Assembly (NCBI GenBank): GCA_030153785.1
Contig: JASKLF010000010.1
Span: 1-64,000 of the forward strand
Direction of reading: 5' to 3'
Source: a bacterium
GTDB taxonomy: Bacteria > Synergistota > GBS-1
DNA length: 64,000 nt
A program made the translations under genes and the position numbers. Below, piece after piece: positions 1,167 through 23,273 of the stretch; the first letter of the stretch is position 1; each line of letters starts with the position of its first letter. Under the pieces are notes generated by a model. That model was not told the origin of the DNA. It saw only the letters and a program-made list of their open reading frames with translations, and searched no databases.

Positions 1167-2324
1167 TTATTCGATGGTAAGTAACCCCCATCCAAGAGGC
1201 TTCCGTATCCCGCCATCGTCCCAGAGAAGGCGAGTAACAGGAAATGGCTTAGATTTTTTATTTTTCCCAGATTTTTTATCTTTTACAATCCCCAGTTGAA
1301 ATACATCCCTCATCCTTTCAAACTCTTCGGGACTAAAAACCATGTCTATGGTCTTTCCGAAAAAGGTGGTTCCCTTACCCAAAAGTATTAAAGCAGAGTT
1401 TCCTTTGCCATTTATATACCTTTCAAGCTCATCATAAATTTTATTATAAATTTTAGTTCCATGATTTCCCCTTTCATGCTTGATGAAGTCTTTAGCAAAT
1501 TCATTAAGCAACTCGAATATCTTTAGAATGGCATCCCTTTCGTATCCCTTTAAAAACTCCCAAAAATCCGAAGCTAAATTGTAAAGCGGACTTTTTCCTT
1601 TAAAAAGCCTTATATCAAGCTCTACCTCTTTGCCCTCATCCAAACACTCAAGAAACATGGGAGGTTCACTTTTTTCTCTCTTGAGATGAAACGAATAACA
1701 CTGAAATATTTTGAAATCATCCTGGGCTAAGGGTTCGCTATCTCTGACCCTCAAAAGCTTTAAAAAGTCGTCCTTGGCATCATACTTTTCCGAACTTGTA
1801 AATCTGGCCGAAAACGTTTTAAATTGCAAACCTGCGTTCTGATAAGCAAATTTAGGATTCTTTCTCTCATGCCTTACAGCATTCAACACATCGGCGGTTT
1901 TTAATTTCTTTCGCTTAAAATAACAATAAGCTACAGCCGTTCTTATAGCCCCCTTAACGCTACTTCCAGGTATATATTTACCCAAAGCGGAGGATACAAA
2001 CCTTTCAATTTTGACATCTCTATTTTTTCCTGAAGCTGACTTAAAATAAATTTTACCCTTTATAAGACCGCGAACATCATCCTTAGTTATTATTCCATCA
2101 TTTTTAAGGTCATTAATAAAATCTCCTACATTCTTCCCTTCCTTAATGGACTTGACATAATCATCGACTAACCCTTCGTTCTTAGATAAAAGCTCAAAGA
2201 GCTTAAGCTGGTCTATCACATATATATAGTTATCCTTTACAACGTAATCAACTTTTGGGTAAAAAGCGTACTCCTTTCCACCACCTATAAATATTGGGGT
2301 TAAAGACCTAAGTTTAACCCTCAA
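1167..2324 (-). CDS. csm5: Type III-A RAMP protein Csm5
   Basis: LTPIFIGGG, YIPGSSVKGAIRTA, LGKGTTFFGKT, C-terminal PLGW; last gene of the csm operon. Confidence 0.9.
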   Translation of the reverse strand: MRVKLRSLTPIFIGGGKEYAFYPKVDYVVKDNYIYVIDQLKLFELLSKNEGLVDDYVKSIKEGKNVGDFINDLKNDGIITKDDVRGLIKGKIYFKSASGKNRDVKIERFVSSALGKYIPGSSVKGAIRTAVAYCYFKRKKLKTADVLNAVRHERKNPKFAYQNAGLQFKTFSARFTSSEKYDAKDDFLKLLRVRDSEPLAQDDFKIFQCYSFHLKREKSEPPMFLECLDEGKEVELDIRLFKGKSPLYNLASDFWEFLKGYERDAILKIFELLNEFAKDFIKHERGNHGTKIYNKIYDELERYINGKGNSALILLGKGTTFFGKTIDMVFSPEEFERMRDVFQLGIVKDKKSGKNKKSKPFPVTRLLWDDGGIRKPLGWGLLTIE

Positions 2325-3310
2325 TTTACATCACCTACCGGAACGAGAAACGACTTTCCATTTCTAAAAATCCGAATATCTCCGGACTTCTCCTCAAAAA
2401 GCCTTCCTTTAACCTCACCCTTGTAAAAGGATCCTTCAGAAAGCATCATCACCCTTGACTTTTTAATGCTCCTTCCCCCTCCCATATAAACAAATCCGTC
2501 ATCCTTAACCAAAGAAAAGTAACATACATTGTCAATCTCATCCCTTAAAGGATAGACACGGGAAAGTCCCACATAGCCTACCACACTTTTAACCTGAGGA
2601 AAGATATTTCTCTCTTCTATCTCAAGCCTATTGAAAATCCCCATTCCCTCGCTTCTTCCCCCGCCAAGCCCTTCATCAGCGATGAACTTAACAACACTAA
2701 TCAGCTTCTCCTTCCAATATTCAGAAAGCTCACAGATAAAGTAAAATCCCAACGGATATGCGACCAATATTTCATTCGTAAAGAAAAGGTTTGAAGAGTA
2801 ATCTAATCTATCTATGGAAGCGTGAGGACGCTCCAGCTTAGCAAAAGGGAAAACCTTTTTAAGCTCCTCTTTTACAATACCGGGGACATAAAAAATATCC
2901 TCCCAAATTCCATCGATGGAAAAGTCATACCCATGATAAAAAGCCTTCTCCGATTCATCATAAACGATGCTCCTCCCTAACTCAAAAAACGCATCAAAAG
3001 ACAGCCACTTCACCTTTTTCACCTTTTTGACTTCTGAACTTCTACCTTCAGCTTCCCTCTTCCGTCCATAAGGAAGGATTGGGCGCGGTAAAAATAGTAT
3101 ATCCTCGCCCCCCCACCTTAATAAGGGGAACAAGGAAGATATCTTTATCTCATCCTCAGAAACAGCTTTAGCAAAGTTACAAAGTTCCTCTTCCCCGTAT
3201 AACTCCACCATTCCATTTGATAACGCTCCGAATAACGATGAAGAGCCAAAACACAGGTCTTTCCATAATAGGGTGGTTTTCTCCTTCGGGAAAAGCTTAA
3301 AAACCATCAT
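2321..3310 (-). CDS. csm4: Type III-A RAMP protein Csm4 (Cas5 group)
   Basis: SSLFGAL, ISSLFP, RPHASIDR, DEGLGGGRSEGMG, EGS; position in operon. Confidence 0.9.
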   Translation of the reverse strand: MMVFKLFPKEKTTLLWKDLCFGSSSLFGALSNGMVELYGEEELCNFAKAVSEDEIKISSLFPLLRWGGEDILFLPRPILPYGRKREAEGRSSEVKKVKKVKWLSFDAFFELGRSIVYDESEKAFYHGYDFSIDGIWEDIFYVPGIVKEELKKVFPFAKLERPHASIDRLDYSSNLFFTNEILVAYPLGFYFICELSEYWKEKLISVVKFIADEGLGGGRSEGMGIFNRLEIEERNIFPQVKSVVGYVGLSRVYPLRDEIDNVCYFSLVKDDGFVYMGGGRSIKKSRVMMLSEGSFYKGEVKGRLFEEKSGDIRIFRNGKSFLVPVGDVN

Positions 3311-4179
3311 TTTCCTTCGCCCTTCTCCTCATTAACCCTTTCGCGAACCCAATTCACAATCTTCGCATCCTCCAACTCTGAAAGGCCCTTAAAGGAGTCT
3401 TTGTATCTTTCTTCGCTCTTTTCCCCCTCGTAAAAGGAACGCCCCCTAAAGGCAATACTTATATCCATAAAGCTGATAACCCCATGCCCCCTTGAGCCAT
3501 GTCCACCAAGATAATCATCTTCAAGAAGCCTCATACCGGTTATAAGAGTCTTTAAAAGGTCGGCATCCTTTTCACTCAAAAGCTTCACGCTCATTGAAAA
3601 GTTAAAACGGGCTCCCGCAGGAACCCTCTCTACCTGTCGCGGGTTAGCCACCGAGGTAAGCCTATCAATAGCATTTTCATATTTAACTTCACTATACTCT
3701 AATTCAAGAAGCTCAGCACTTTCAAATTTTTCCTTAAAATGCTCCTCATCTAAAAAAGCATCTTTAACCAAAAGGCGCGTAGGATTCAAGGGAAACTTAT
3801 TCTTATTTGCAGGAACACCGAAAAGCTTACAAATATCGCATTTACCACAGGCACAAGGCTTACCTTCAAATTCAATATTCTTATTATTTTTAACCTGCTC
3901 CGAGTATTTTCCCCAAAACTTACTTAAATTTTCAAAAGTATAATCACCTAATTTATAATCCCCTTTTCCATCCTTGAGCTCCAGCAAAGCCCTCATTTTA
4001 CCCTTTAAAGATGAACCCGGTATATATGGAACGCCAAAGGGATCTTTAACTACGGGAAGGTCAACACCACCAACCTCAAGCACTTCCTTGGAACCACCGA
4101 TATGAAGTCCCGTTTTAGCCTCTATTTTGCCCTCTATAATAACTCTCCCCATAAACCTTGGGAAAGTCATCATATACAC
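3307..4179 (-). CDS. csm3: Type III-A backbone RNase Csm3 (Cas7 group)
   Basis: TGLHIGG...GGVD (catalytic Asp position), PYIPGSSLKGKMR, ENAIDR, NPRQVERVPAG, DYLGGHGSRGHG. Confidence 0.95.
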   Translation of the reverse strand: MYMMTFPRFMGRVIIEGKIEAKTGLHIGGSKEVLEVGGVDLPVVKDPFGVPYIPGSSLKGKMRALLELKDGKGDYKLGDYTFENLSKFWGKYSEQVKNNKNIEFEGKPCACGKCDICKLFGVPANKNKFPLNPTRLLVKDAFLDEEHFKEKFESAELLELEYSEVKYENAIDRLTSVANPRQVERVPAGARFNFSMSVKLLSEKDADLLKTLITGMRLLEDDYLGGHGSRGHGVISFMDISIAFRGRSFYEGEKSEERYKDSFKGLSELEDAKIVNWVRERVNEEKGEGK

Positions 4180-4184
4180 ACCCC

Positions 4185-4580
4185 CTATCCTTTATAAACC
4201 TTTTTATAACAAACAAACATCTTCATAAACTCTTTAAAATCCCTTAGGTCTTTCTCCTCCTTAACTTTCTTAATAATAGAATCTAAAAAGTCAGTTAACG
4301 AACTTATATCGTTTCTCGCTCCAACATAAGCCAATAAGGGTCTTAAGGACACTAACTCTTTGGGGGCCTTTTTCTTCCTGACGCTCGAGTAGATATTTCG
4401 TACCTGAGTAAAAGTGGCCTTATCTTTTCTAGCAAACTCCTTTACTTTTTCATAAAATTCGTTTAGCTTATCTGTATTAAGCTCGCTCAGTCTAAGGACA
4501 TTTTCCGCTATCTCCTCTTTTAACTTTTTTAACTCCTCCATGTTATTATTAGTCGTTTTCCTCCCCTGCATTCTATCCAT
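4185..4580 (-). CDS. csm2: Type III-A small subunit Csm2 (Cas11)
   Basis: Small helical protein with TQVRNIY, LAYVGAR and F..FVCYKK; lies between cas10 and csm3; likely start ATG at 4580 after GGAGG. Confidence 0.85.
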   Translation of the reverse strand: MDRMQGRKTTNNNMEELKKLKEEIAENVLRLSELNTDKLNEFYEKVKEFARKDKATFTQVRNIYSSVRKKKAPKELVSLRPLLAYVGARNDISSLTDFLDSIIKKVKEEKDLRDFKEFMKMFVCYKKVYKG

Positions 4581-4582
4581 GC

Positions 4583-6925
4583 CTACCGCACCTCCCTTGT
4601 CGAAAGATATGCAAGGCATGAGGCAATATACAATATGGCCGGATTCCTAACCTCAACAGGAATCCCCCCTATCTTAACCTTCCCTTTAAAGGGAAGCCTT
4701 TCGTATAAACCAACAAGATAATCCCTAAAATCTTTGTCCTTCATATTTCTCAGAGCATAAACGAAAAGCCATGGTCTCGGAAATCTAAAGCTCTCACCTG
4801 TTTCTCTAATCTCCCTTGCAAAGGCGATTACCCTGAAAAGAGAGGCTCTTGCTTCAGAAAGCTCGGCTTTCTTGAAATTCCCCTTAAGCTCCTCCCACAG
4901 CTTCAAAACCGCCTCATATTCCTTCTTTGTAAAAACCTCTCCCCAAATAGCAACGCCGTTTTTCTCTACGTATTTACTTTTGGCACGGTGAAGCTCCTCC
5001 TCTACCGTTTCCGCAGCTCTACTAACCGGGTAGTGGGGTTTAGCAAGAAATATGCCTACAGAAAAGGTTATATTAGGGTTCGAAGCAACATATCTTCTGA
5101 AAGCCTCCTCTATAACTTTGGCAATCTCAAGAGCCCTATTCCATGGAGATATTATTAAAGCGTCGTCTCCTCCTGCAAAAACGAGATAATCCGTATCGGA
5201 AATTATCTTCCGAGGGACATACCTTTCAAAGAACAGAGCAAGCATCCTGCTTAAAGCAGCGACTCTTGAAATGGAATAATTTTCCCCCAAGCCCTCTTTG
5301 AAAAGCCTTCCCAAGCTGTCCACATCCAGCTTTACATACCCTAAAAGGTCATCTCCTTCGCTCCTCTTCGATAACTCCTCAAATGTCTCCTTAGGCTTTT
5401 TAAGTAAAGCATTTTCAAGGTAAATCCGTTTTCTCCTATCGTCATCTTCTAATCTGAAAGCCTCTATGGAGTAACCAAAAGCCTTGAACAATGAAAAACA
5501 ATCCTCAATTTCCGTTTCAGGCCCGGGTTCAATTTCCTTGAAACCAATATAATTTTTATCGCCAAATCGCTGTGATAGCTCTATAAAGGAATTACACATC
5601 TTGCATATCTTCTGAGTAGCCGGGGGCTCATCGTAGTCTAAAAGTAACCTTCTTTCATTTTCCCCACATATGACACAATGTTCCTCATAGGAAGCTAACT
5701 CCCCAGGCGAACCAAAGAGAAGCTCGTATCCACCTTCTATTTCAAAAACTTCCTTAAACTTTGCCATCTTAACCTTAGAAAGCTTTTCCTGAAGAAGCTC
5801 AACGGCTTTAGCAAAGTTCTCCTCATGCTTCATGAAGAAATACTTATAAAAAAGAGGAATCCAAGCCAAGCTTATATAAACCTTCCCTTTTAAAGCTTTC
5901 AGTAGGTTCTTAGATATCTCCCTTTTAATCTCTTCAAGCTTATTCTCAGCAGAGCGAGGAGCTAAAATCCAAAAAGTTCCACCACCGATGTAAAGTGTAT
6001 TGACGAGCCTTAAGTCAAGTTTTCTAATTATATATCTCGCCACAACTTCCATTAACAAGGACAAAAACAAGGACCTTCCCTTTAAACTTTTTGCCGCTCC
6101 CTTAGAAGGTATATCGAAAATAAAACTCTGAATTCCTGAAAGGTCTCCTCCCACAAGCAAAAAGTCAGCTTCCTCCCCAATTCTGCCATTCCCACCCCTT
6201 AATAAGAATTCCCTAACATCTCTCAAGCGACCTTTCCAGAAATCCTCTCCATAACTTTCTTTCGCTCTTATCTCATGCCAGTAAGCAACTGCTATAGCAG
6301 CTGTAACCCTTGAATGGTCATACAAAGAAATATCTGGTGTAGCTTTTTCAACCTGTGAAGGAACACACCATAGATATCTCTCAAGTAGAGCTAAAAGATC
6401 TTCCTCGGTTTCTATCGCTTTCAGGTCGGATTCGAAACCCTCCTCAAGCTTATCGTAGCTATATTCCTCCTTCTCCCGGGGGAAAACAATATCTTCCTCT
6501 ATGCAAAGTTTTTCAAGGGGATAATACTTCCCTTCTCCCCCGTCGAAAACTTGGCTAAAGACGCTTAGCAAAGGCTCCTTATAGTAATACCCACTTCCTT
6601 TTTCTGCGTCACCCCTCCTTTCACCTGCAGAAAGATAGTCTGAGGTCTGAAGAACTTCTTCCCAGAAGCTTTCAGGCGCGTGATGTCGCAACAACAGCTT
6701 CTCGAGCCCTTCAAAATCCTTTTCTGAAAAATTAAGCCTTTTAAAAAGAGGTATCCCCCCTTTAACGTTATTGAACCACCAATGAGAATACTTAGGGTGA
6801 GCCCAACCGGTATCTGCATCCCTATACTCTTCCTTTTGGGATATTTGCGAATACTTTTTAGTTCGCTCTATGAACTTCCCAATATCGTGCAATAAAGCTC
6901 CCAGATAAAAAACATTCAACTCCAT
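4583..6925 (-). CDS. cas10: Cas10/Csm1 with HD nuclease and intact Palm cyclase
   Basis: LLHDIGK HD domain, PDISLYDH, GGDLSGIQSFIF, CxxC...CxxC, KLDVDSLG, FAGGDD. Confidence 0.96.
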   Translation of the reverse strand: MELNVFYLGALLHDIGKFIERTKKYSQISQKEEYRDADTGWAHPKYSHWWFNNVKGGIPLFKRLNFSEKDFEGLEKLLLRHHAPESFWEEVLQTSDYLSAGERRGDAEKGSGYYYKEPLLSVFSQVFDGGEGKYYPLEKLCIEEDIVFPREKEEYSYDKLEEGFESDLKAIETEEDLLALLERYLWCVPSQVEKATPDISLYDHSRVTAAIAVAYWHEIRAKESYGEDFWKGRLRDVREFLLRGGNGRIGEEADFLLVGGDLSGIQSFIFDIPSKGAAKSLKGRSLFLSLLMEVVARYIIRKLDLRLVNTLYIGGGTFWILAPRSAENKLEEIKREISKNLLKALKGKVYISLAWIPLFYKYFFMKHEENFAKAVELLQEKLSKVKMAKFKEVFEIEGGYELLFGSPGELASYEEHCVICGENERRLLLDYDEPPATQKICKMCNSFIELSQRFGDKNYIGFKEIEPGPETEIEDCFSLFKAFGYSIEAFRLEDDDRRKRIYLENALLKKPKETFEELSKRSEGDDLLGYVKLDVDSLGRLFKEGLGENYSISRVAALSRMLALFFERYVPRKIISDTDYLVFAGGDDALIISPWNRALEIAKVIEEAFRRYVASNPNITFSVGIFLAKPHYPVSRAAETVEEELHRAKSKYVEKNGVAIWGEVFTKKEYEAVLKLWEELKGNFKKAELSEARASLFRVIAFAREIRETGESFRFPRPWLFVYALRNMKDKDFRDYLVGLYERLPFKGKVKIGGIPVEVRNPAILYIASCLAYLSTREVR

Positions 6926-14559: not shown

Positions 14560-16995
14560 GTCGCAATCCCTTTTTCCTCAGGGAGTTTTTCCACAAAAGA
14601 ACAAGAAAGCTCTTTCAGGAAGGAAAGGCAGGTCAGTCGCAATCCCTTTTTCCTCAGGGAGTTTTTCCACTTTTAGTTATTAGGTTGGATAAGGTTAAGG
14701 ATTATGGGAAACATGTCGCAATCCCTTTTTCCTCAGGGAGTTTTTCCACATATATTGAGAAGCATGCGGAGGAGATATCTGAGAAGCCGGAGTCGCAATC
14801 CCTTTTTCCTCAGGGAGTTTTTCCACATAAAACACCAAAAAATACTACCTACGGGGCAGAAATAGGTCGCAATCCCTTTTTCCTCAGGGAGTTTTTCCAC
14901 AAACATTGGAGAGTGTGTAGGGTCAGAATCCCTTCTATGTCGCAATCCCTTTTTCCTCAGGGAGTTTTTCCACGGTAGTAGTTATGTTGAATTAGATTTT
15001 GGTAGGCATGTTAGGTCGCAATCCCTTTTTCCTCAGGGAGTTTTTCCACCAAAATTTTTTAATACATCTTTCTTTCCCACCACACCTATCACAATAGAGT
15101 GTCGCAATCCCTTTTTCCTCAGGGAGTTTTTCCACAAATATATGAATGCAATGAGTTTGCGTATTATCTGCAAATGTTTTGTCGCAATCCCTTTTTCCTC
15201 AGGGAGTTTTTCCACCTAAATATGAAGTAGTTTTTACACAAGGAGAATATGTCGCAATCCCTTTTTCCTCAGGGAGTTTTTCCACAGGCTTCAAAATAGA
15301 TGAAGGTTAGCCCGCCTCCCTCTTACTAGTCGCAATCCCTTTTTCCTCAGGGAGTTTTTCCACTGATGATGGAAAATGCGCGCTGGCTCCTGAGGAGGTT
15401 ACTCCTCAGGAGTCGCAATCCCTTTTTCCTCAGGGAGTTTTTCCACTGAAAAAGAGATTTGTGGTAGTTGAATTGTGGGACTGGAGAAATGTCGCAATCC
15501 CTTTTTCCTCAGGGAGTTTTTCCACCTTAAAGAGGAGGCGGAAGAAGATGTTAGGTAGTATGGTTAGAAAGTCGCAATCCCTTTTTCCTCAGGGAGTTTT
15601 TCCACAGGGAATGGTTAAAAATGGTAAAAGACGATGATTATTCGATGTCGCAATCCCTTTTTCCTCAGGGAGTTTTTCCACCCAAGGTGGAGGAAATTGC
15701 ACATTTCCTCCGCCGATTTTGATTGTCGCAATCCCTTTTTCCTCAGGGAGTTTTTCCACTAAAAGACAAAATAACTGTCAGTCAGTATAAAGGGTCGCAA
15801 TCCCTTTTTCCTCAGGGAGTTTTTCCACCCGACTTTGACTATTGCCCCATTCGTGGCAGCTATCAAAGCTGGTCGCAATCCCTTTTTCCTCAGGGAGTTT
15901 TTCCACACATGGAAGAAGTTGTACATTTCAACAAGTGATTTTGATTTTTGGTCGCAATCCCTTTTTCCTCAGGGAGTTTTTCCACACTATCCTTCTCCTG
16001 AACTAAAAGAGGAGCTGGAAAGATTGGGTCGCAATCCCTTTTTCCTCAGGGAGTTTTTCCACCTTTTCGCCTCCCTTGGCGTCCCGGCGCCCGTCCGGAT
16101 TATAGGTCGCAATCCCTTTTTCCTCAGGGAGTTTTTCCACCGGATGTTGGGCATGGCAAGACGGAGAGTGCGCGGAGGCTCCTGTCGCAATCCCTTTTTC
16201 CTCAGGGAGTTTTTCCACGAGGCAATTAGGTTGGAGCTGAAAGATGATTTTTGCTTTTAGTCGCAATCCCTTTTTCCTCAGGGAGTTTTTCCACTCAGCA
16301 AAAAGAAAGTAAAGAAAAAGAAGATAAAAGGTAAGTCGCAATCCCTTTTTCCTCAGGGAGTTTTTCCACTTTATACATGCAGTGAATTTTGCTACGCTTT
16401 ACAAGTCGCAATCCCTTTTTCCTCAGGGAGTTTTTCCACAAAGGAGGGGGTTGTGATGAAAAGGTTCTTGGTAGTTGAATTTTGGGTCGCAATCCCTTTT
16501 TCCTCAGGGAGTTTTTCCACTCAAAGGGGGGATTAATAATGAAAAAGAGGTTTCTCGTGATTGAAGTCGCAATCCCTTTTTCCTCAGGGAGTTTTTCCAC
16601 GGAATATTCTTTGGAAGTTTACACAACAAACGAGTTTTGCTAGTCGCAATCCCTTTTTCCTCAGGGAGTTTTTCCACGTACGGAACCATGTTGGTTTGGG
16701 ACAGGTATAGTTCCAAACCAAGTCGCAATCCCTTTTTCCTCAGGGAGTTTTTCCACTGGAAGGAGAAGGCAATAAATAAGGGTTTAGGTAGGATAGCGTC
16801 TGGGTCGCAATCCCTTTTTCCTCAGGGAGTTTTTCCACAGGTGATAGGAAAATGAAGGGTATGACGATCTCCTTTAGATGGTCGCAATCCCTTTTTCCTC
16901 AGGGAGTTTTTCCACAATATTGATGATGGGCATATTGTTTATGCATTATATGCCGATTGAGTCGCAATCCCTTTTTCCTCAGGGAGTTTTTCCAC
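14560..16995 (-). CRISPR. CRISPR array, 32 identical 35-nt repeats and 31 spacers of 34-51 nt
   Basis: Transcribed repeat GTGGAAAAACTCCCTGAGGAAAAAGGGATTGCGAC with a TCCCT/AGGGA stem and ATTGCGAC 3' handle; leader on the cas2 side, terminator on the other side. Confidence 0.99.
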
Positions 16996-17281
16996 CCCCA
17001 AGGGGGGTGGAAAAACAAAAACGCTTTAAAAAGGACAAGTTTTTGTTCGCTAATACCGAAAAACTCGAGTGATACCTCTTTCAAATTCTACCGTGAATTG
17101 CTAAACAACTTAGGCATGGAAAAGCGTTGATATTGCTAAACTCCGAATTCCTCAGATGTCTCACGAAATTATTTAATTTTTTCCATGTCAGTATCATCCG
17201 AGGATTGTATAAACAATATTTAATTGTCAAAGTTCATCCTAAAAGGTGCTTTTCGCCTCTTTTATAATGATATCACTAACA
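16996..17281 (-). promoter_or_regulatory. CRISPR leader
   Basis: AT-rich non-coding region between cas2 and the first repeat; possible TTGACA-N15-TACAAT (short spacing) near 17204-17230. Confidence 0.75.
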
Positions 17282-17566
17282 TTAAATTATGTCTATCTCT
17301 CCTTCCTCTAAACTTGGTGTCTTTCCTATGAACTCTATCGTTTCCACACATCTTTTACACAGCAGGTAAAATCTCACAGAATCGGTTTCCATATCTATAA
17401 TGGAAGAAGCCTTCCTCTTTATCTCTATAATAAGCTTTTCATCAACATAGCATTCAAATACGCTTTTCTGGACTCTTACGCCATATCTTTCAAGAAGCTT
17501 TGCCATCATCTCTCTCTTTTTATCGTCACTTATGTCGTAGGATATAACATAATACCTCTTACTCAT
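17282..17566 (-). CDS. cas2: CRISPR-associated Cas2
   Basis: YVISYDISDDKKR, GVRVQKSVFEC, DSVRFYLLC. Confidence 0.97.
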   Translation of the reverse strand: MSKRYYVISYDISDDKKREMMAKLLERYGVRVQKSVFECYVDEKLIIEIKRKASSIIDMETDSVRFYLLCKRCVETIEFIGKTPSLEEGEIDII

Positions 17567-18543
17567 GGCCTTAGTATATACGAAGAATAAGTAGACTCCC
17601 CTTTTATCGCTTTGGACAAGGCATGAACCTGCGCATTAATAGCGCTATCAAGCGAGCGTGTCCTAATTTGTCCTTGAAATTCGGCTATAACCTTTTTCAT
17701 TCCCTCATAAGTAAGGTAGACTCCTGCAGAATCCTCTTCATCCTCTTGAAAGAAGCGGAAATCTCCCAAAAGCAACATTCTTTTGTTGGAAAGTTTTAAA
17801 AATATTCTATCCATGCACGGTCTAAATTCTTCCATTAAATCAAGAGCTAAAGAGGGCCTTCCATAGTCTATGGAGTGATAGAACCCTATGTAAGGGTCGA
17901 GCCCCTCTTTATACAAAGCCGATTCCACAAAACTAAAAAGCAAAGTATAAAGAAAACTTAAAACTGCATTAGCCGGGTCTTCTGGAGGACGACGAGTCCT
18001 TGAGGAGAACTTAAATATATCGTTCTTAACGCATAAATTTAGTGCTCTGAAATAGGATTCCGCTGCAGTGCCCTCTATCCCCATCAAAGACTCCAAAGAG
18101 GGACAAAATTCTATTTTCATCAAGAGCGAACGCAAAAAGGAACATGCCTCGCCTATCTCCCGATTTTTCGTCTCCCACCTATACTTTTGCAAAAGAGATA
18201 TGGAGTTCCTTATTTTCCCCCTAACAAATTCCTTAGCCAGACTTAGCTTAAAATTCATATCCCTGCATTTCTCATACTGCATAAGCCTAAGAAAAATATT
18301 TTTAGAAAATTTGCCCTGGAGCCTTCCCCTATAATCACCCCTTGAAGAGAGAAAAACTACCTCTATCCCTTTTCTAAGAGAATAGCTTATCAGATAAGGA
18401 GATAAACGAACGTTCCCCAGTAGAATAATTTTTTCAACACTGCCATCGGCATAGCTTCTTACCACTTCATCACCTATCTTAACCACTATTCTACCTCCGT
18501 GAACGGAAAGTTCTGCACCTTGCTCCAAAACATAGACAACCAT
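17563..18543 (-). CDS. cas1: CRISPR-associated integrase Cas1 (no RT fusion)
   Basis: GIEGTAAESYF, RTRRPPEDPANAVLSFLY, GLDPYIGFYH, SLALDLMEEFR. Confidence 0.97.
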   Translation of the reverse strand: MVVYVLEQGAELSVHGGRIVVKIGDEVVRSYADGSVEKIILLGNVRLSPYLISYSLRKGIEVVFLSSRGDYRGRLQGKFSKNIFLRLMQYEKCRDMNFKLSLAKEFVRGKIRNSISLLQKYRWETKNREIGEACSFLRSLLMKIEFCPSLESLMGIEGTAAESYFRALNLCVKNDIFKFSSRTRRPPEDPANAVLSFLYTLLFSFVESALYKEGLDPYIGFYHSIDYGRPSLALDLMEEFRPCMDRIFLKLSNKRMLLLGDFRFFQEDEEDSAGVYLTYEGMKKVIAEFQGQIRTRSLDSAINAQVHALSKAIKGESTYSSYILRP

Positions 18544-18544
18544 T

Positions 18545-20326
18545 TTATCCTACATCCAAGATAATGTTTTCTCCATCGAACTTTAATGTATATCCTTCCA
18601 CACGAATCTTTTCCAAACCCCTCTCCTGCATATAGTTAGCTATGGAGTTTTCCACCCTTTTAAGCTCCATTTTAGCTTCCTCAAAAATCTTTCTAACCCT
18701 TATATATTCCATAACCATTACTAACTCATCGGGTTCTTCACGCTCAGCAGCTTTAAGATGAAGAAGAGGAGTTGGATAGCCTTCGATGTTTTTGCCGGCA
18801 AAACATTCCGTGCAGTTATCCTTAGTTATTTCAGGAATTTTGGACCTTATCTTAGGACAGCTCATGGGGTAACCACTTAGTTTGCTCTTTAAATAAACCC
18901 TTTTGTTCTGCACACCAGATAAGCTTAAAATAGAGTTCACCACCTTATCTCCATTAGAAAGGTTACCAAGCGTAAAGGTTATTACCGATATCTCAGGACC
19001 AGTTAAAGGAAAACCGCTTTTGCTCTTTTCATAAAGTTTGGCTATTACATTACACCTTGATTTTATGATCATAAACTCCTTATCCTCTTCCAGGATGAAC
19101 TCTCTCTGAGGAATATCTTCCTGAAGAACCTCTACAGAAACGGTCCTAATCAAGTTACCTAAAGATTTACAAGCTTCGCTAAACTCATCTTCAGAAACCA
19201 GCTCCATGGAAAGCAGATAAGATAGTTGATCCTCATAAGGTCCTCCATCGGGAGTTACAAATAAGCTTCTTCTCCCCGTTCTTTTATGAACCCCAAGAGG
19301 AAGCTTAATTAAGTTCCCTAAACCTCCGCTCTTAATGTAAGCTTGCTTGGGAAAAAGCTCGACAGAAACATCAACCGGAAAGGGTCTTAAAGACTCCATT
19401 AACGATAAACCGAATTCCCTAACTTTTAATGCCGATATCGGCTTTTTAAATAAAACCCAAACATGATAGCCCTTAAAACCAGAATATTCTATGTAAGACT
19501 TAAGTCCAAGTTCGTCGAAGCTTCGAGAAATTTTAGAAGCCAAAGAGATTAGCTCCTGGTCTATTCTGTTCTTTACAGAGGGAGAAGAAAGGTAAGAAGA
19601 AAGCTCAGCCTTCGCCACATCAATATCGAAAGCCAGAAAACAAACGGTGTTATCTTCTCTGAGCTGATATATCCCAAGTGTATAATTCCCGAGAATGTGA
19701 TTCTTTACCTGATTCAACGTTAACGGCTCCCTTATCGGCGTGAAACCTACCTCTCCCCTTGGCGTAACCCATTGTCTGGCATGAACTCCATCTCTTCCCC
19801 TAAAAAGAGAAAGATATTTAGCGAGGTGAATTTCGGAAGGAACCAAAAGCTCTTCAGTTATGATCTCCTGGTCCTTTTCTTTCAAACTTTTAAGAATCTC
19901 CTTAAAGATGGAGTCACCACTTAAAGATAATGCCTCCTCACAAAGGGCCTTCAGTTCCTCATACCTTTCTTGAATTTCATATATTCTTGCAAGCAAAAGG
20001 TAAAGGTGTTTTTCCTTGCGCCTGCCGAGAAATCTTTTTAAAAGCCTTTCGGCGTCATCAAGTCTCCCGCTGTCTATGTAGCTTTCTATTAAGCATTCAA
20101 GAGCGAACATGTTTTCTTCATCGTCCCTTAAAGAGAGACACAATTCTTGCTCAGCTAAGTTATTTAATCCCAAAGCCTTAAGGGTCTTAAAGGCTTCAAG
20201 ATGCAAGTTGCTATCAACCACGCCGTGAGCAGGAAAGCGGTTTTTTAATAGCTCCTCAGCTTCCCTTTGCTCCCCGCGCTCTATGAGAGCTTTAGCCTTC
20301 TCAAGAACATCTTTTAAATCCTCCAT
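18545..20326 (-). CDS. CRISPR-associated primase-polymerase (CAPP): TPR-like N-terminus, AEP core and Cys-containing PriCT-like domain
   Basis: Helical TPR-like N-terminus, FRGRDGVHARQW, AEP motif I FDID, motif II SGFKGYHVW, ELFPKQ, GNLIKLPLG, C-terminal Cys residues (RCNV, MSCPK, NCTEC); abuts cas1. Confidence 0.88.
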   Translation of the reverse strand: MEDLKDVLEKAKALIERGEQREAEELLKNRFPAHGVVDSNLHLEAFKTLKALGLNNLAEQELCLSLRDDEENMFALECLIESYIDSGRLDDAERLLKRFLGRRKEKHLYLLLARIYEIQERYEELKALCEEALSLSGDSIFKEILKSLKEKDQEIITEELLVPSEIHLAKYLSLFRGRDGVHARQWVTPRGEVGFTPIREPLTLNQVKNHILGNYTLGIYQLREDNTVCFLAFDIDVAKAELSSYLSSPSVKNRIDQELISLASKISRSFDELGLKSYIEYSGFKGYHVWVLFKKPISALKVREFGLSLMESLRPFPVDVSVELFPKQAYIKSGGLGNLIKLPLGVHKRTGRRSLFVTPDGGPYEDQLSYLLSMELVSEDEFSEACKSLGNLIRTVSVEVLQEDIPQREFILEEDKEFMIIKSRCNVIAKLYEKSKSGFPLTGPEISVITFTLGNLSNGDKVVNSILSLSGVQNKRVYLKSKLSGYPMSCPKIRSKIPEITKDNCTECFAGKNIEGYPTPLLHLKAAEREEPDELVMVMEYIRVRKIFEEAKMELKRVENSIANYMQERGLEKIRVEGYTLKFDGENIILDVG

Positions 20327-20340
20327 CTTTTGTCAGCCCC

Positions 20341-21795
20341 TTAATAGAGCCTGTCAAGCTCTTCCTTCAATATCCTATTAGCCTCATCATAGAAGTTCTC
20401 TTTAAAACCGAATCGTTCTTTAAATACCCTATAAACTTCCTCTAAATCTTTTACCTGCGATTCAGGAAATTGGACCACATCATGAGCAAAAGGCCCTTTG
20501 TTTCTTAGCTCTCTTAAGCGCTCTATCCTGGACTCTACGTCCTTATCGCAAATAATAGAATAGACACGCTCTATTTCTTCTATGGGCTTAACTATTTCCT
20601 CCCTCATCTTTTCGATGGCATACGATAAAATTGCCTTCTTTTCAACAAAATTCAGCTTTCCCTCTTCATCCGCCCCTGCCTTCTTAATTTTCTCGATGGC
20701 GCTCGATAAAATGCCCTTCTCATCGGGAAGATTCGCTTCATTCTTTAGCTTTTCCACTATCCCTTCCTCCTTTAGCTTATCAAATGCAACACTGAGCAAA
20801 AGATCTGTGAAGTTAAATAGGGCAGCACAGGCAGAGTGATATTCCCCTTTCTTCAAGTATATCTCCATCTCCTCAAAGGAAGCTTTTAAGCGAAATTTAG
20901 CATCGCTCATCTTCTGAATGCTTCCCAAAGTATTAGAGAAGTAGTCCCAAAATTTTTTCCTCCCTGGAAAATCCTTTTTAAGATCTCCTACGCAATTACG
21001 GGCATTCTTGAAGTCAAACAGCCTTCTTAATTTCATCGCCCTAAGGAGCGACTTTAGTTCGGAAGCCCCGAAAAGCCCGGACTCTTCAAGCTCCTTTAAG
21101 GCATCAGCATAGCTGTAAGAATCTATCAATCTCTTAATAACGGCCTTACGCTCAGAAAAAACGAGCTTTTCAAGGAATACACTTTCCTTAACCTGGGTTT
21201 CTTTCCCATCAGCGATTTTCATAAGGTTAAATATCTTCAATGGAGCGGGAATGTTTCTTAAAGCAAGTATCAGAGAGAAACACATCGCAGGGGTGCCCGC
21301 AGTAACCTGAACATAATTAACTGAAAAAGATTTAAGCTTCTCTTCCTCCTCATTAATGAAGTTCATGAAAAATTCGCTCATCTCCTCATGGCTCGCCGGA
21401 TTGCCCTTTATCACCTTAATGGAAACTTTCCCCTTAAAACCCTTCCCATAGCTCTTGGGTAGGAAATGGTCCTCTATAATTTTCGCAAGATATATGGTGT
21501 CCTGAGGGTGAGGAGCTTCCTGGTCTGTAGCAAACAAATATATGGAATCGGGAAGTCCCTTTTCTTCTTTAATACCAAATCTCAGGAAAGTAGGGAACGT
21601 GGGGAAAAATATTCTTACATCGGGAAGCAGAATGCTATCTTTCTTCTTATTAGTATCGAATTTTTCTTCAGAAAGTCTTAAATAGAGCTCTTTTGTTTTC
21701 TCTCTAAAATTGTTTCTTATATCTATCCTTTCCGAATTGCCGTTATATAATTGTAAATCATTATTACCAAGCGTATAAAGTAAACTCCACGTCAC
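20341..21795 (-). CDS. CARF-HEPN cOA-activated ribonuclease (Csm6/Csx1-like)
   Basis: CARF motifs YTLGNND, ATDQ...DT, VTAGTPAM; helical middle region; HEPN RNKGPFAH; likely GTG start at 21795 after GGAGG. Confidence 0.8.
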   Translation of the reverse strand: MTWSLLYTLGNNDLQLYNGNSERIDIRNNFREKTKELYLRLSEEKFDTNKKKDSILLPDVRIFFPTFPTFLRFGIKEEKGLPDSIYLFATDQEAPHPQDTIYLAKIIEDHFLPKSYGKGFKGKVSIKVIKGNPASHEEMSEFFMNFINEEEEKLKSFSVNYVQVTAGTPAMCFSLILALRNIPAPLKIFNLMKIADGKETQVKESVFLEKLVFSERKAVIKRLIDSYSYADALKELEESGLFGASELKSLLRAMKLRRLFDFKNARNCVGDLKKDFPGRKKFWDYFSNTLGSIQKMSDAKFRLKASFEEMEIYLKKGEYHSACAALFNFTDLLLSVAFDKLKEEGIVEKLKNEANLPDEKGILSSAIEKIKKAGADEEGKLNFVEKKAILSYAIEKMREEIVKPIEEIERVYSIICDKDVESRIERLRELRNKGPFAHDVVQFPESQVKDLEEVYRVFKERFGFKENFYDEANRILKEELDRLY

Positions 21796-21839
21796 CTTTC
21801 TACCCTCCCTTACCAAACAAAAATTCCTAATGGAGAAGC

Positions 21840-22330
21840 TCAAAAGAGCATGTCGGAAATATGTCTTCGAAGGAAATCCGCTTGACTGCGAAACGGCGTA
21901 GTTACACCAATAAAGATATGGAATTCTCGAAGTTCATTAATCTTGACCAGCAGTTTTTTAACCACTTCCGCTTCCTCATAATTTATGTTGTTCCTCTCAG
22001 CCCCTTCCGTGTGAATCCAGAGTATCCCTTGAAAATCTTTAAATCTTTGGTGAATCGAATATCACAAAACCTCTTATGTGACTAAACTCGGGAGAAAAAA
22101 AACCGATTCAAGCCCGTTTTTAAGGAGGTTAAGGAGATCGAATTTATAGGGAGGTTATTGGAAATTATAAGCGAATCAGGAATAGAAGATAGAATATTGG
22201 GCTGGACTACCAGATTCAGGTTCACCCCGTCTAAAGAGGAAAATCTCCTTCTAAGAGGCTCAAAAATGACACCATAGGCGCGTCGCTCATGATCAAATCC
22301 AAAATCAGAAACTAAAGGGGAACGAAACAT
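21840..22330 (-). pseudogene. Degenerate superfamily-1 (UPF1/DNA2-like, AAA_12-type) helicase remnant
   Basis: Minus frame 22061-21840 reads GILWIHTEGAERNNINYEEAEVVKKLL...IGVTTPFRSQADFLRRHI*. It has no SD-linked start and there are in-frame stops just upstream. Confidence 0.6.
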
Positions 22331-22337
22331 AAAAATG

Positions 22338-23273
22338 TCACCCCGCGACGCTTAAACTACCCAAAGCCACCCTCCCGAAACCAAATGTCGTGTTTTTGCC
22401 CACATGAAGCTCCCTCATAGCTCTCAAATAGGGTAAGAGAAAAGCGAAAACGGGCTTGTACTTTACACTTCCCATAACTCCGTAAAAAGGAATCCTTCGC
22501 CTTTGCCTATGGGAAAACCTTTCAAAAATCCCCTCGTTTAATGAAAAGCTTACTATGTTAACTTCGTCAAGCATACTCAATACATCTTTAAAAGGATACT
22601 GGCCATCTCCTCCACAGTGGAAGTAATCTAAAAGAACTATTCTCCTAAAGAAATTCCTCATCAGGGCAGAAAATTGCGGAATATCTAAAACCTCTCCATT
22701 AAAAACAAGCCTTAAGGGAGACTCTAAGATAAGCTCTACCAAAAATGGGGATAAATCCTCATCAAGGTCAAATTTAAGATAGTTATAGTCCTCTGTAGGG
22801 AAATCTATGCCATCACCCTTAAAAAGGTTTTTCCCGTTAAATGATAAGGAGTTAATCTCAAAATCCAAACTTCTCAATACATTCGAAAAGCAATAAGCAA
22901 AGTAAGGAAGATATTCGTTAGCTCTACCAATAAGGGTTAACTCTATGATTACCTTATCCCCTTCGGCGAGGGAAAGGTTCTTGAATGGAAAGTATATAAC
23001 AAAAGGGCGGGGAGCAGTTTCGTATTTACGCATGATTTTAGTTAGAGGCGGCGGAGAAGTTTCAAAAATTATGGCATAAGGACAGGAGGTCCTGAGCATA
23101 CATTTTATGCAATTGGAAGCCTTTCTTATACACACGAGCCTCCTAAATTCTGCTCCAAATTTGCCCCGCAATACGTTAGACCCAAAAGGCCCCATCTTCC
23201 TATCTTTCTTAGATATACATTCTAAGTCATATTTTCTCCAGTAAAGCATCCTCCAATAGCACCTCTCCCCCAT
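22338..23273 (-). CDS. cas6: Cas6 pre-crRNA processing endoribonuclease
   Basis: GSNVLRGKFG, Cys cluster, PRPFV, C-terminal G-loop LHVGKNTTFGFG; true start may be 23249. Confidence 0.9.
   Translation of the reverse strand: MGERCYWRMLYWRKYDLECISKKDRKMGPFGSNVLRGKFGAEFRRLVCIRKASNCIKCMLRTSCPYAIIFETSPPPLTKIMRKYETAPRPFVIYFPFKNLSLAEGDKVIIELTLIGRANEYLPYFAYCFSNVLRSLDFEINSLSFNGKNLFKGDGIDFPTEDYNYLKFDLDEDLSPFLVELILESPLRLVFNGEVLDIPQFSALMRNFFRRIVLLDYFHCGGDGQYPFKDVLSMLDEVNIVSFSLNEGIFERFSHRQRRRIPFYGVMGSVKYKPVFAFLLPYLRAMRELHVGKNTTFGFGRVALGSLSVAG

Follow-up and report, generated by a model that had tools for sequence, protein, structure and literature searches.

What does a primase-polymerase do when its gene stands directly ahead of cas1 and cas2? 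The question is raised by a CRISPR locus in the window analyzed here, a 64,000-nucleotide stretch that opens contig JASKLF010000010.1 of assembly GCA_030153785.1 (Synergistota; GBS-1). The original prediction, made from the DNA letters alone, read three consecutive genes as an adaptation module, CAPP-cas1-cas2. This reading is supported by a curated family model (NF040561), by a PADLOC model, by a structural model of the AEP domain that matches a solved Prim-Pol, and by the gene order of the family. Taken together, the evidence makes it very probable that the locus, of type III-A, holds a CRISPR-associated primase-polymerase (CAPP) of type A1 directly ahead of cas1-cas2 and an array; a mechanism of prespacer synthesis is proposed for it below. 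Coordinates of all features are collected in Table 1.

Table 1. Features of the type III-A locus and of the CAPP protein, with positions in the window and supporting evidence.
Feature	Position	Strand	Evidence
Type III-A effector genes cas10/csm1, csm2, csm3, csm4, csm5	1167..6925	minus	TIGR02578 558.8 bits; TIGR01870, TIGR02582, TIGR01903, TIGR01899; all above cut-off
CRISPR array, 32 identical 35-nt repeats and 31 spacers	14560..16995	minus	
Leader, cas2 to first repeat (inferred)	16996..17281	minus	position and repeat orientation
cas2, 94 aa	17282..17566	minus	PF09827 E 6.6e-22; TIGR01573
cas1, 326 aa	17563..18543	minus	PF01867 E 1.1e-89; TIGR00287 263.6 bits
CAPP gene (CRISPR-associated primase-polymerase type A1), 593 aa and stop	18545..20326	minus	NF040561; PADLOC PDLC01101; 231 homologues at E<=1e-5
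CAPP residues 1-155, TPR domain, nine helices; predicted Cas1 docking face	19862..20326	minus	Pfam TPR_14; model; co-fold
CAPP residues 163-383, AEP / Prim-Pol catalytic domain	19178..19840	minus	PF22548; PDB 7nqd; Foldseek
CAPP residues 404-530, helical C-terminal domain, PriL-CTD-like (weak)	18737..19117	minus	invariant columns; model pLDDT 90.2; VIA-align
CAPP residues 531-593, long helix and three strands, diverged Mu Gam/Sipho_Gp157-like (PF22709)	18548..18736	minus	columns match PF22709 in relatives
Csx1/Csm6-type CARF+HEPN gene, 500 aa	20341..21843	minus	PADLOC Csx1 E 7.1e-29; Csx1/Csm6 CARF+HEPN E 5.5e-24
82-aa ORF without known family, between cas6 and the Csx1/Csm6-type gene	22082..22330	minus	
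cas6, 311 aa	22338..23273	minus	PF10040 E 3.4e-11; PADLOC Cas6 E 1.6e-63

The 593-aa protein belongs to class A type 1 of the CAPPs and has the domain order TPR-AEP-CTD. It scores 321.7 bits (cut-off 200) against NF040561, the curated NCBIfam equivalog for type A1 of these primase-polymerases, and is the sole match to that model in the genome; the PADLOC model named "PrimPol adaptation polymerase" (PDLC01101) recognizes it at E 6.5e-110. No reverse transcriptase (RT) family in Pfam or NCBIfam matches the protein itself. Its relatives include two that are 73% identical (P0002 and P0003). Its closest described counterparts are the CAPPs of Marinitoga piezophila (MpCAPP) and Marinitoga sp. 1137, which share the domain order and the catalytic motifs, belong to the first type of class A (CAPP-TPR), and likewise have cas1-cas2 and an array as neighbors within a type III locus (PMC8211822). 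The protein described here differs from the Marinitoga CAPP in having only 31-36% identity over the catalytic domain and in its length, 593 aa rather than 546 aa. Since NF040561 aligns residues 85-560 with profile positions 37-513 of 515, it has a longer TPR region and about 33 residues past the end of the profile. In a further difference, no Argonaute gene was seen near this module, the neighbors being cas6 and a CARF-HEPN gene.

The distinctiveness once attributed to this copy was overstated. A TPR-AEP-CTD protein without RT is the first type of CAPP_A as published (PMC8211822), its C-terminal segment proves to be family-wide (see below), and absence of RT and Cas4 is usual in related loci. 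The CAPP family, its architecture, its gene order, the crystal structure of its catalytic domain, and its activities in vitro are all known already, and curated models name the protein automatically, so the identification carries little weight as a discovery.

The three genes are tightly packed, as had been stated. Between the CAPP stop codon and the ATG of cas1 stands a single base (18544), and the end of cas1 shares 4 nt (ATGA) with the start of cas2. Because of these 1-nt and 4-nt junctions, CAPP, cas1, and cas2 probably form one transcription unit. The array starts 286 nt beyond cas2. On the other side, 14 nt upstream of CAPP, lies the Csx1/Csm6-type CARF+HEPN gene, which also hits TIGR02672 under cut-off (E 5.9e-11). 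Next to it, the 82-aa ORF finds no match in Pfam, NCBIfam, or PADLOC. A distance of 7.6 kb, with unrelated transport and redox genes in it, separates the type III-A effector genes from the array, so co-regulation of the effector half and the adaptation half is not evident.

The order CAPP-cas1-cas2 is the rule in the family. Among 72 related loci with room for a downstream gene, 71 have Cas1 downstream on the same strand as CAPP, and 63 have Cas2 as well. The predicted lack of RT and Cas4 also holds: the 1.52-Mb assembly, 95.74% complete, has one Cas1 gene and no match to PF00078 or PF01930, a statement that applies to the assembled part because the genome is a draft in 14 contigs. One candidate explanation, that the gene is a decayed replicase left by a mobile element, is rejected because its motifs are invariant and its order with cas1 is conserved.

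The AEP fold is present, as PF22548 matches residues 168-383 at E 1.1e-45, and with the TPR matches this gives an AEP-TOTE domain fused to TPR. The predicted model of the full-length protein has pLDDT 85.4. By Foldseek, its AEP domain superimposes on structures of Marinitoga sp. 1137 CAPP (7P9J, 7NQF, 7NQE, and 7NQD) with TMt 0.92-0.94 and rmsd 1.6-2.5 A at the 31-36% identity already given. The sequence match to PDB 7nqd (E 3.3e-41) aligns the motifs DIDxxK, GYHxW, and GGLGNLIKxPLGVHKxTG. The catalytic motifs described for this copy are indeed intact, with FDID at 233-236, SGFKGYH at 282-288, and GNLIKLP at 337-343; EEPDEL, after which the terminal segment had been placed, falls at 530-535. 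Residues D234, D236, S282, G283, K285, G286, H288, G337, L339, K341, and P343 are invariant across 24 full-length homologues. The TPR assignment for the N-terminal region also stands, as TPR_14 scores 27.7 bits (cut-off 23.5), helices in the model span residues 4-154, and Foldseek matches include MamA and CTPR.

Activity of the 593-aa CAPP is inferred by homology to the Marinitoga enzymes. Its relatives show DNA-dependent priming started with GTP, extension with dNTPs, and strand displacement (PMC8211822; PMC10345425). Of the CAPPs, only those of Marinitoga and Dysgonamonadaceae have known DNA primase, polymerase, and strand-displacement activities, and the D177A/D179A form of MpCAPP, the matching DxD mutant, is inactive (PMC8211822).

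Past the AEP domain, the original label of PriCT is not confirmed. No PriCT model from Pfam matches residues 384-593 or 528-593 at E up to 10, that scan giving only weak rows for DUF7376, DUF7307, and PF22709, and there is only a modest fold resemblance to the Fe-S domains of primase large subunits. The best structural match by VIA-align for residues 408-530 is the PriL-CTD/p58C domain of the eukaryotic and archaeal primase large subunit, with Z 6.0, 5.1, and 4.8 for 6DI2, 5DQO, and 8D0K over 103-120 aligned residues (6DI2_A: rmsd 4.6, 118 aligned); identity is 11-14%, and such Z values lie in a range where helical domains can match by chance. Four conserved cysteines are part of the likeness. 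C425, C490, C508, and H523 are invariant in the homologue alignment, and the fourth cysteine, C505, is in CxxC spacing here, where most relatives have CxC. A search of PDB with a sequence profile of this domain finds nothing below E 0.048; Foldseek finds no PDB match at E <= 0.001 and none in BFVD, where the best row is a phage AE_Prim_S_like protein (E 0.087). In contrast to PriL-CTD/p58C, the domain here shares one polypeptide with the catalytic subunit and precedes a tail that resembles Gam/Gp157. In a review, the CTD of CAPPs is modeled in a role like that of Pri2/PriX (PMC10345425).

That tail, a long helix with a beta segment, had been taken for an extra of this copy. Instead it aligns in all 24 full-length homologues and is present in every one of 53 related loci whose C-terminal region is complete. 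PF22709 matches the same alignment columns in 34 of 40 relatives, and also in P0015 and P0013; this copy itself falls under the threshold (E 0.07, 13.5 bits, cut-off 27). Because VIA-align returns only generic coiled-coil rows (Z about 4) for the last 60 residues, the Gam/Gp157 label for the tail is Pfam's alone. The literature searched yielded no discussion of a Gam/Gp157-like tail in CAPPs, and for those who work on these proteins the useful point is that the tail appears to be a family-wide Gam/Gp157-like unit after a cysteine-rich, PriL-like helical domain.

At the other end of the protein, modeling points to a partner. When CAPP residues 1-400 were co-folded with Cas1, the score was 0.61, compared with 0.01 for the best of three controls; such a score expresses the confidence of a model and is no measurement of binding. 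Among solved complexes, 116 of 157 attain that mark, and among mismatched pairs, 2 of 215, counts that are approximate here, where our own alignments were used. Between runs, at least 51% of contacts are shared, and the partner's pLDDT is 84 or more. The predicted interface joins TPR residues 12-151 to Cas1 residues 115-148, 294-297, and 325-326; predicted contacts in it include CAPP residues 50-55 and 81-89, and residues 131-146 and the last residues of Cas1. MpCas1 binds residues 1-360 of MpCAPP in yeast two-hybrid and pull-down assays (PMC8211822), and the part in which contact is predicted here, residues 1-400, corresponds to that published fragment. The co-fold and the Marinitoga two-hybrid data support docking of Cas1 on the TPR domain, and offer CAPP researchers a concrete, testable TPR-Cas1 interface.

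CAPP likely helps make new spacers in this type III-A locus; published work, too, offers the role of CAPPs in adaptation as a proposal (PMC8211822). In the mechanism we favor, the TPR domain would dock on Cas1, and CAPP would then prime synthesis de novo on single-stranded fragments of invader DNA and extend the new DNA strand, giving a duplex prespacer for Cas1-Cas2. It could also fill repeat gaps after integration. We prefer second-strand synthesis for prespacers, rather than gap filling, as the main job: simple gap filling from an existing 3' end would have no need of the putative primase-type accessory domain, with four conserved cysteines, that the family retains. Should CAPP act solely after integration, extending 3' ends at the staggered cuts, copying the repeat, and resolving the intermediate with no part in prespacer formation, de novo priming would be needless, yet the primase-type domain with C425, C490, C505/C508, and H523 has been kept, and host polymerases handle gap filling in most CRISPR systems. 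We consider this alternative unlikely, while granting that a TPR tether on Cas1, as predicted, would bring the polymerase to the integration site. Post-integration gap filling is among the roles proposed for CAPPs, backed by strand-displacement synthesis, although characterized relatives also prime efficiently (PMC8211822).

A very improbable alternative is that CAPP replaces the missing reverse transcriptase, converting invader RNA to DNA so that spacers come from transcripts. Beyond the assembly's lack of RT, there is a strand bias that would fit: read on the strand whose crRNA is antisense to a purine-rich sense strand, 25 of the 31 spacers are rich in purines (mean 0.585). Such a bias can also arise by selection for type III targeting, however, and one spacer, which matches the host pheS gene perfectly, lies in the non-targeting orientation, which fits uptake blind to orientation followed by selection. 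Fusions of RT with CAPP do exist, both in related locus L068 and in the CART-CAPP proteins of Caloramator australicus and Geobacillus lituanicus, which share the Prim-Pol domain and CTD and also sit next to cas1-cas2 in type III loci (PMC10415136). Those proteins, however, carry an N-terminal RT and a Prim-Pol domain reported there as inactive, whereas the protein described here has TPR in that place and all its catalytic residues intact. Against the alternative, too, PMC8211822 describes MpCAPP and DbCAPP (Dysgonamonadaceae) as polymerizing poorly on RNA templates, and MpCAPP as giving no efficient priming on RNA. Least credible of all is a role as the effector in a conflict system of the TOTE type (TPR, OB, TBP, effector), with the gene acting against invaders on its own and merely neighboring the CRISPR genes. 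Pfam does name the domains accordingly, AEP-TOTE for PF22548 and Mu_Gam-Sipho_Gp157-TOTE for PF22709 in the C-terminal domain of relatives; these models describe the same kinds of domain, fused to TPR, in TOTE systems (Aravind, Iyer et al. 2022, via PMC12458937), and related locus L064 has a fusion of TPR with a cold-shock domain beside CAPP. But the ORFs scanned from 8914 to 32394 include no OB/cold-shock or TBP gene that could serve as partner. The constant partners are instead Cas1 and Cas2, with Cas1 following CAPP in the 71 loci counted above, and the 1-nt and 4-nt junctions imply a transcription unit shared with cas1-cas2.

The prespacer-synthesis reading also bears on the array, whose spacer statistics had been called unusual. 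The 31 spacers, of 34-51 nt (SD 3.6), have the longest mean and the widest spread among the 33 CAPP-linked arrays compared, which we regard as a mild oddity. A more specific proposal, improbable at present, is that the inner face of the TPR domain (12-151) would clamp Cas1 helices 115-148 together with the C-terminal tail of Cas1, and that products of primer extension, not a tight protein ruler, would set prespacer length in this lineage. Spacers that are the longest and most variable of the 33 arrays would then be explained, and the integrase would directly carry a primase that has a cysteine-rich domain like that of PriL and a tail like Gam. With a thermophile-sized genome, a single Cas1, neither RT nor Cas4, and long, variable spacers, this organism would make a clean natural case for the role of CAPP in spacer length or choice. 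This array's repeat, with up to 3 mismatches allowed, occurs in none of five related genomes, whose CAPP contigs are too short for arrays. Two crude tests for links among spacers connected 2 pairs by spacer-to-spacer blastn and 3 spacers by a repeat search. On the minus strand the repeat ends in ATTGCGAC, as do the repeats of arrays that follow cas2 in related loci.

The 593-residue protein encoded immediately upstream of cas1 passes the NCBIfam equivalog model NF040561, "CRISPR-associated primase-polymerase type A1", with a score of 321.7 bits (cutoff 200), and matches the PADLOC model "PrimPol, adaptation polymerase" with an E-value of 6.5e-110. TPR repeats precede its Prim-Pol catalytic domain (AEP), which Pfam recognizes as an AEP-TOTE domain at residues 168-383 (E-value 1.1e-45). 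The motifs FDID (233-236), SGFKGYH (282-288, expected as SGxKGYH) and GNLIKLP (337-343), all named in the original prediction, are present, and an alignment of 24 full-length homologs shows the catalytic residues D234, D236, S282, G283, K285, G286, H288, G337, L339, K341 and P343 to be invariant. An AlphaFold2 model (pLDDT 85.4) has nine helices at residues 4-154 followed by an alpha/beta catalytic domain. Structure prediction, proposed earlier as a check, thus returns the AEP fold: the best PDB matches are to the Prim-Pol domain of the CRISPR-associated primase-polymerase (CAPP) of Marinitoga sp. 1137 (7P9J, 7NQF, 7NQE and 7NQD), with target TM-scores of 0.92-0.94, rmsd of 1.6-2.5 A and 31-36% identity. 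By sequence, the match to 7NQD has an E-value of 3.3e-41 and aligns all three motifs. Zabrady et al. (PMC8211822) describe the Marinitoga D177A/D179A mutant, counterpart of the DxD pair found here, as inactive. The original observation holds for the most part, the reading of the locus as a CAPP-cas1-cas2 adaptation module was right, and the gene is a regular further member of a published, structurally characterized and automatically annotated family.

CRISPR-related features of the window
Feature	Coordinates	Strand	Evidence or remark
Macro-domain ORF, as called 124 aa	520-894	-	O-acetyl-ADP-ribose deacetylase-like
cas10/csm1 to csm5	1167-6925		full type III-A effector set
CRISPR array	14560-16995		
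cas2	17282-17566	-	strong family match
cas1, 326 aa	17563-18543	-	strong family match
CAPP gene, 593 aa	18545-20326	-	NF040561, PADLOC PrimPol model
Csx1/Csm6-type CARF-HEPN gene, 500 aa	20341-21843	-	PADLOC E-value 7.1e-29
ORF, 82 aa	22082-22330	-	unmatched in Pfam, NCBIfam and PADLOC
cas6	22338-23273	-	strong family match

On the minus strand the genes run cas6, the 82-residue ORF, the CARF-HEPN gene, CAPP, cas1 and cas2. The tight layout predicted for the last three can be read directly in the sequence, with one base between the CAPP stop codon and the cas1 ATG and an ATGA overlap of the cas1 stop with the cas2 start. A gap of 7 nt separates cas6 from the 82-residue ORF that follows it (8 nt counted from the cas6 stop to the ORF start). 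The effector genes lie 7.6 kb from the block at 14560-23273 that holds the array, cas6, CARF-HEPN and adaptation genes; between effector set and array are a molybdopterin oxidoreductase gene, on the opposite strand, tctABC and trkAH. Directly downstream of csm5, the macro-domain ORF as called spans only the C-terminal two thirds of its family profiles. In 34 more distant CAPP-linked Cas1 proteins the median length is 347 residues, about 20 more than in the window's Cas1 protein, which differs mainly by a gap of 12 residues after position 269, besides small gaps after 296.

A protein search that scored 7,997 candidates returned 231 relatives at E-values of 1e-5 or better, most of similar length with 96-100% query coverage. 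Several already carry the name "CRISPR-associated primase-polymerase type A1". The nearest relatives share 73% identity with the query. With a single genome taken from each species, relatives are encoded in 165 stretches, from Thermodesulfobacteriota, Synergistota, Vulcanimicrobiota, Planctomycetota, Myxococcota, Acidobacteriota, Deferribacterota and other phyla. Among the best 80 of these 165 loci, 8 could not be scored because the sequence stops too close behind CAPP; Cas1 follows downstream on the same strand in 71 of the remaining 72, and Cas2 as well in 63. We scanned the neighborhoods of the 15 loci of at least 13 kb, using 98 of 130 ORFs of at least 150 residues; the other 32, left out of the scan, encode CAPP or Cas1 or overlap those frames on the opposite strand. 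The neighboring genes encode type III-A or III-B effectors, CARF proteins and ring nucleases. The absence of RT and Cas4, presented originally as a distinguishing feature, holds for the assembly that contains the window (1.52 Mb in 14 contigs, 95.74% complete, with a single Cas1), but it is also the usual state: at that ORF length, which a shorter Cas4 would escape, Cas4 occurs in none of the 15 loci, and an RT in three, one of them (L068) an RT-PrimPol fusion and the others L078 and L084. Within the phylum, 4 of 41 genomes (the window's own and 40 relatives) have a CAPP match over the cutoff, and none occurs in the one other genome of the genus, a patchy distribution as expected of a mobile CRISPR module. 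Beside the CAPP gene of one related locus (L064:3667-4863, minus strand) lies a gene for a 399-residue protein that joins TPR repeats to a cold-shock-like domain. This protein is the TPR-OB component of TOTE systems (conflict systems named for TPR, OB, TBP and effector, the definition being taken as cited in PMC12458937), and the window holds nothing comparable.

The coiled-coil and beta segment after EEPDEL, thought at first to be extra to this copy, proves to be family-wide. It aligns column by column in all 24 full-length homologs, and a long helix with strands ends the protein in each of the 53 related loci where that region is covered. Pfam model PF22709, "Mu Gam/Sipho_Gp157-like domain of the TOTE conflict systems", matches this stretch in 34 of 40 relatives' regions scanned, and likewise in the homologous proteins P0015 and P0013. 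The window's own tail scores an E-value of only 0.07 and is probably a diverged version of the same domain. A Gam/Gp157-like tail shared across the family is one addition of the present analysis.

Before the tail comes a helical domain, residues 404-530, with C425, C490, C508 and H523 invariant; its fourth cysteine lies in a CxxC here versus CxC in most relatives. Modeled alone, the C-terminal region reaches a pLDDT of 90.2, and Foldseek finds no match to it in the PDB. For residues 408-530, VIA-align ranks highest the iron-sulfur domains of the large subunit of eukaryotic primase (6DI2, Z 6.0, rmsd 4.6 over 118 residues; 5DQO, Z 5.1; 8D0K, Z 4.8), followed by photolyase helical domains at Z 4.5-5.0. 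These Z-scores are modest, and the primase matches could reflect a common helical arrangement. They agree with a review in which the CAPP C-terminal domain is modeled in a Pri2/PriX-like role (PMC10345425). No PriCT model matched in a Pfam scan of the region, so the label PriCT holds only loosely, for a modest likeness in fold to primase large-subunit domains.

Co-folding of CAPP residues 1-400 with Cas1, a check also suggested at the outset, was run with separate alignments for each partner and three controls. The score was 0.61 (0.58-0.64 in three runs), against 0.01 for the best control. Of 157 solved complexes 116 reach this mark, as do 2 of 215 mismatched pairs; both counts are only approximate here because our own alignments were used. 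At least 51% of contacts agree between runs, with partner pLDDT of at least 84. On the CAPP side the modeled interface falls wholly in the TPR domain (residues 12-151); on Cas1 it involves 115-148, 294-297 and 325-326. The model supports docking of the TPR domain on Cas1. Searches of solved structures by sequence found no CAPP-Cas1 complex, so the prediction is unlikely to reproduce a complex already solved. It accords with the report that Marinitoga piezophila Cas1 binds the 1-360 fragment of its CAPP (PMC8211822), and the TPR-Cas1 interface is offered here as a testable model.

Relatives are described as starting primers with a purine ribonucleotide, mainly GTP, extending with dNTPs and displacing strands (PMC8211822, PMC10345425). 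By homology, the window protein would be a DNA-dependent DNA primase-polymerase. Carried on Cas1-Cas2 through its TPR domain, it would prime single-stranded fragments of invader DNA and then fill them in to give duplex prespacers; possibly it fills the repeat gaps afterwards. Were gap filling its only task, extension would proceed from an existing 3' end and need no primase-type accessory domain. Because the family conserves such a domain, we place priming first and rate gap filling alone lower. Capture of spacers from RNA templates and action as a stand-alone TOTE effector are also rated below priming on Cas1-Cas2.

The array, 286 nt from cas2, has 32 identical 35-nt repeats and 31 spacers of 34-51 nt (mean 42.5, SD 3.6). 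Its minus-strand repeat ends in ATTGCGAC, as do repeats of arrays downstream of cas2 in related loci; the array thus shares its reading direction with the cas genes, and its putative leader adjoins cas2. We compared it with 32 arrays recovered by a simple finder from the 80 related loci. Related arrays with the full 36-37-nt repeat recovered have mean spacer lengths of 36.3-40.0 nt, and SD is 0.7-3.1 among 22 arrays with at least ten spacers. The unusual spacer statistics noticed earlier hold up insofar as this array has the longest mean and widest SD of the 33, in a comparison made with a crude finder that clipped the repeat in several loci and inflated the means there. These long, variable spacers are one of three small additions made here. 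The repeat was found in none of five related genomes, and the CAPP contigs of the nearest relatives are too short for comparison.

On the plus strand, purines predominate in 25 of the 31 spacers (mean 0.585). The spacer at 14901-14938 is a perfect 38/38 copy of the host pheS gene (TIGR00468, 364.3 bits) at 135911-135948 of contig C4 of the same genome. Read from the minus strand of the window, its crRNA agrees in sense with the pheS mRNA, and the two therefore cannot pair. The spacer is self-derived and retained in an orientation that does no harm; this suggests that it was taken up from chromosomal DNA irrespective of strand. The spacers at 15447-15479, 16454-16486 and 16540-16572, and also those at 15682-15724 and 15907-15950, are diverged versions of one another, and appear to cover the ribosome-binding site and first codons of one small gene in related invaders.
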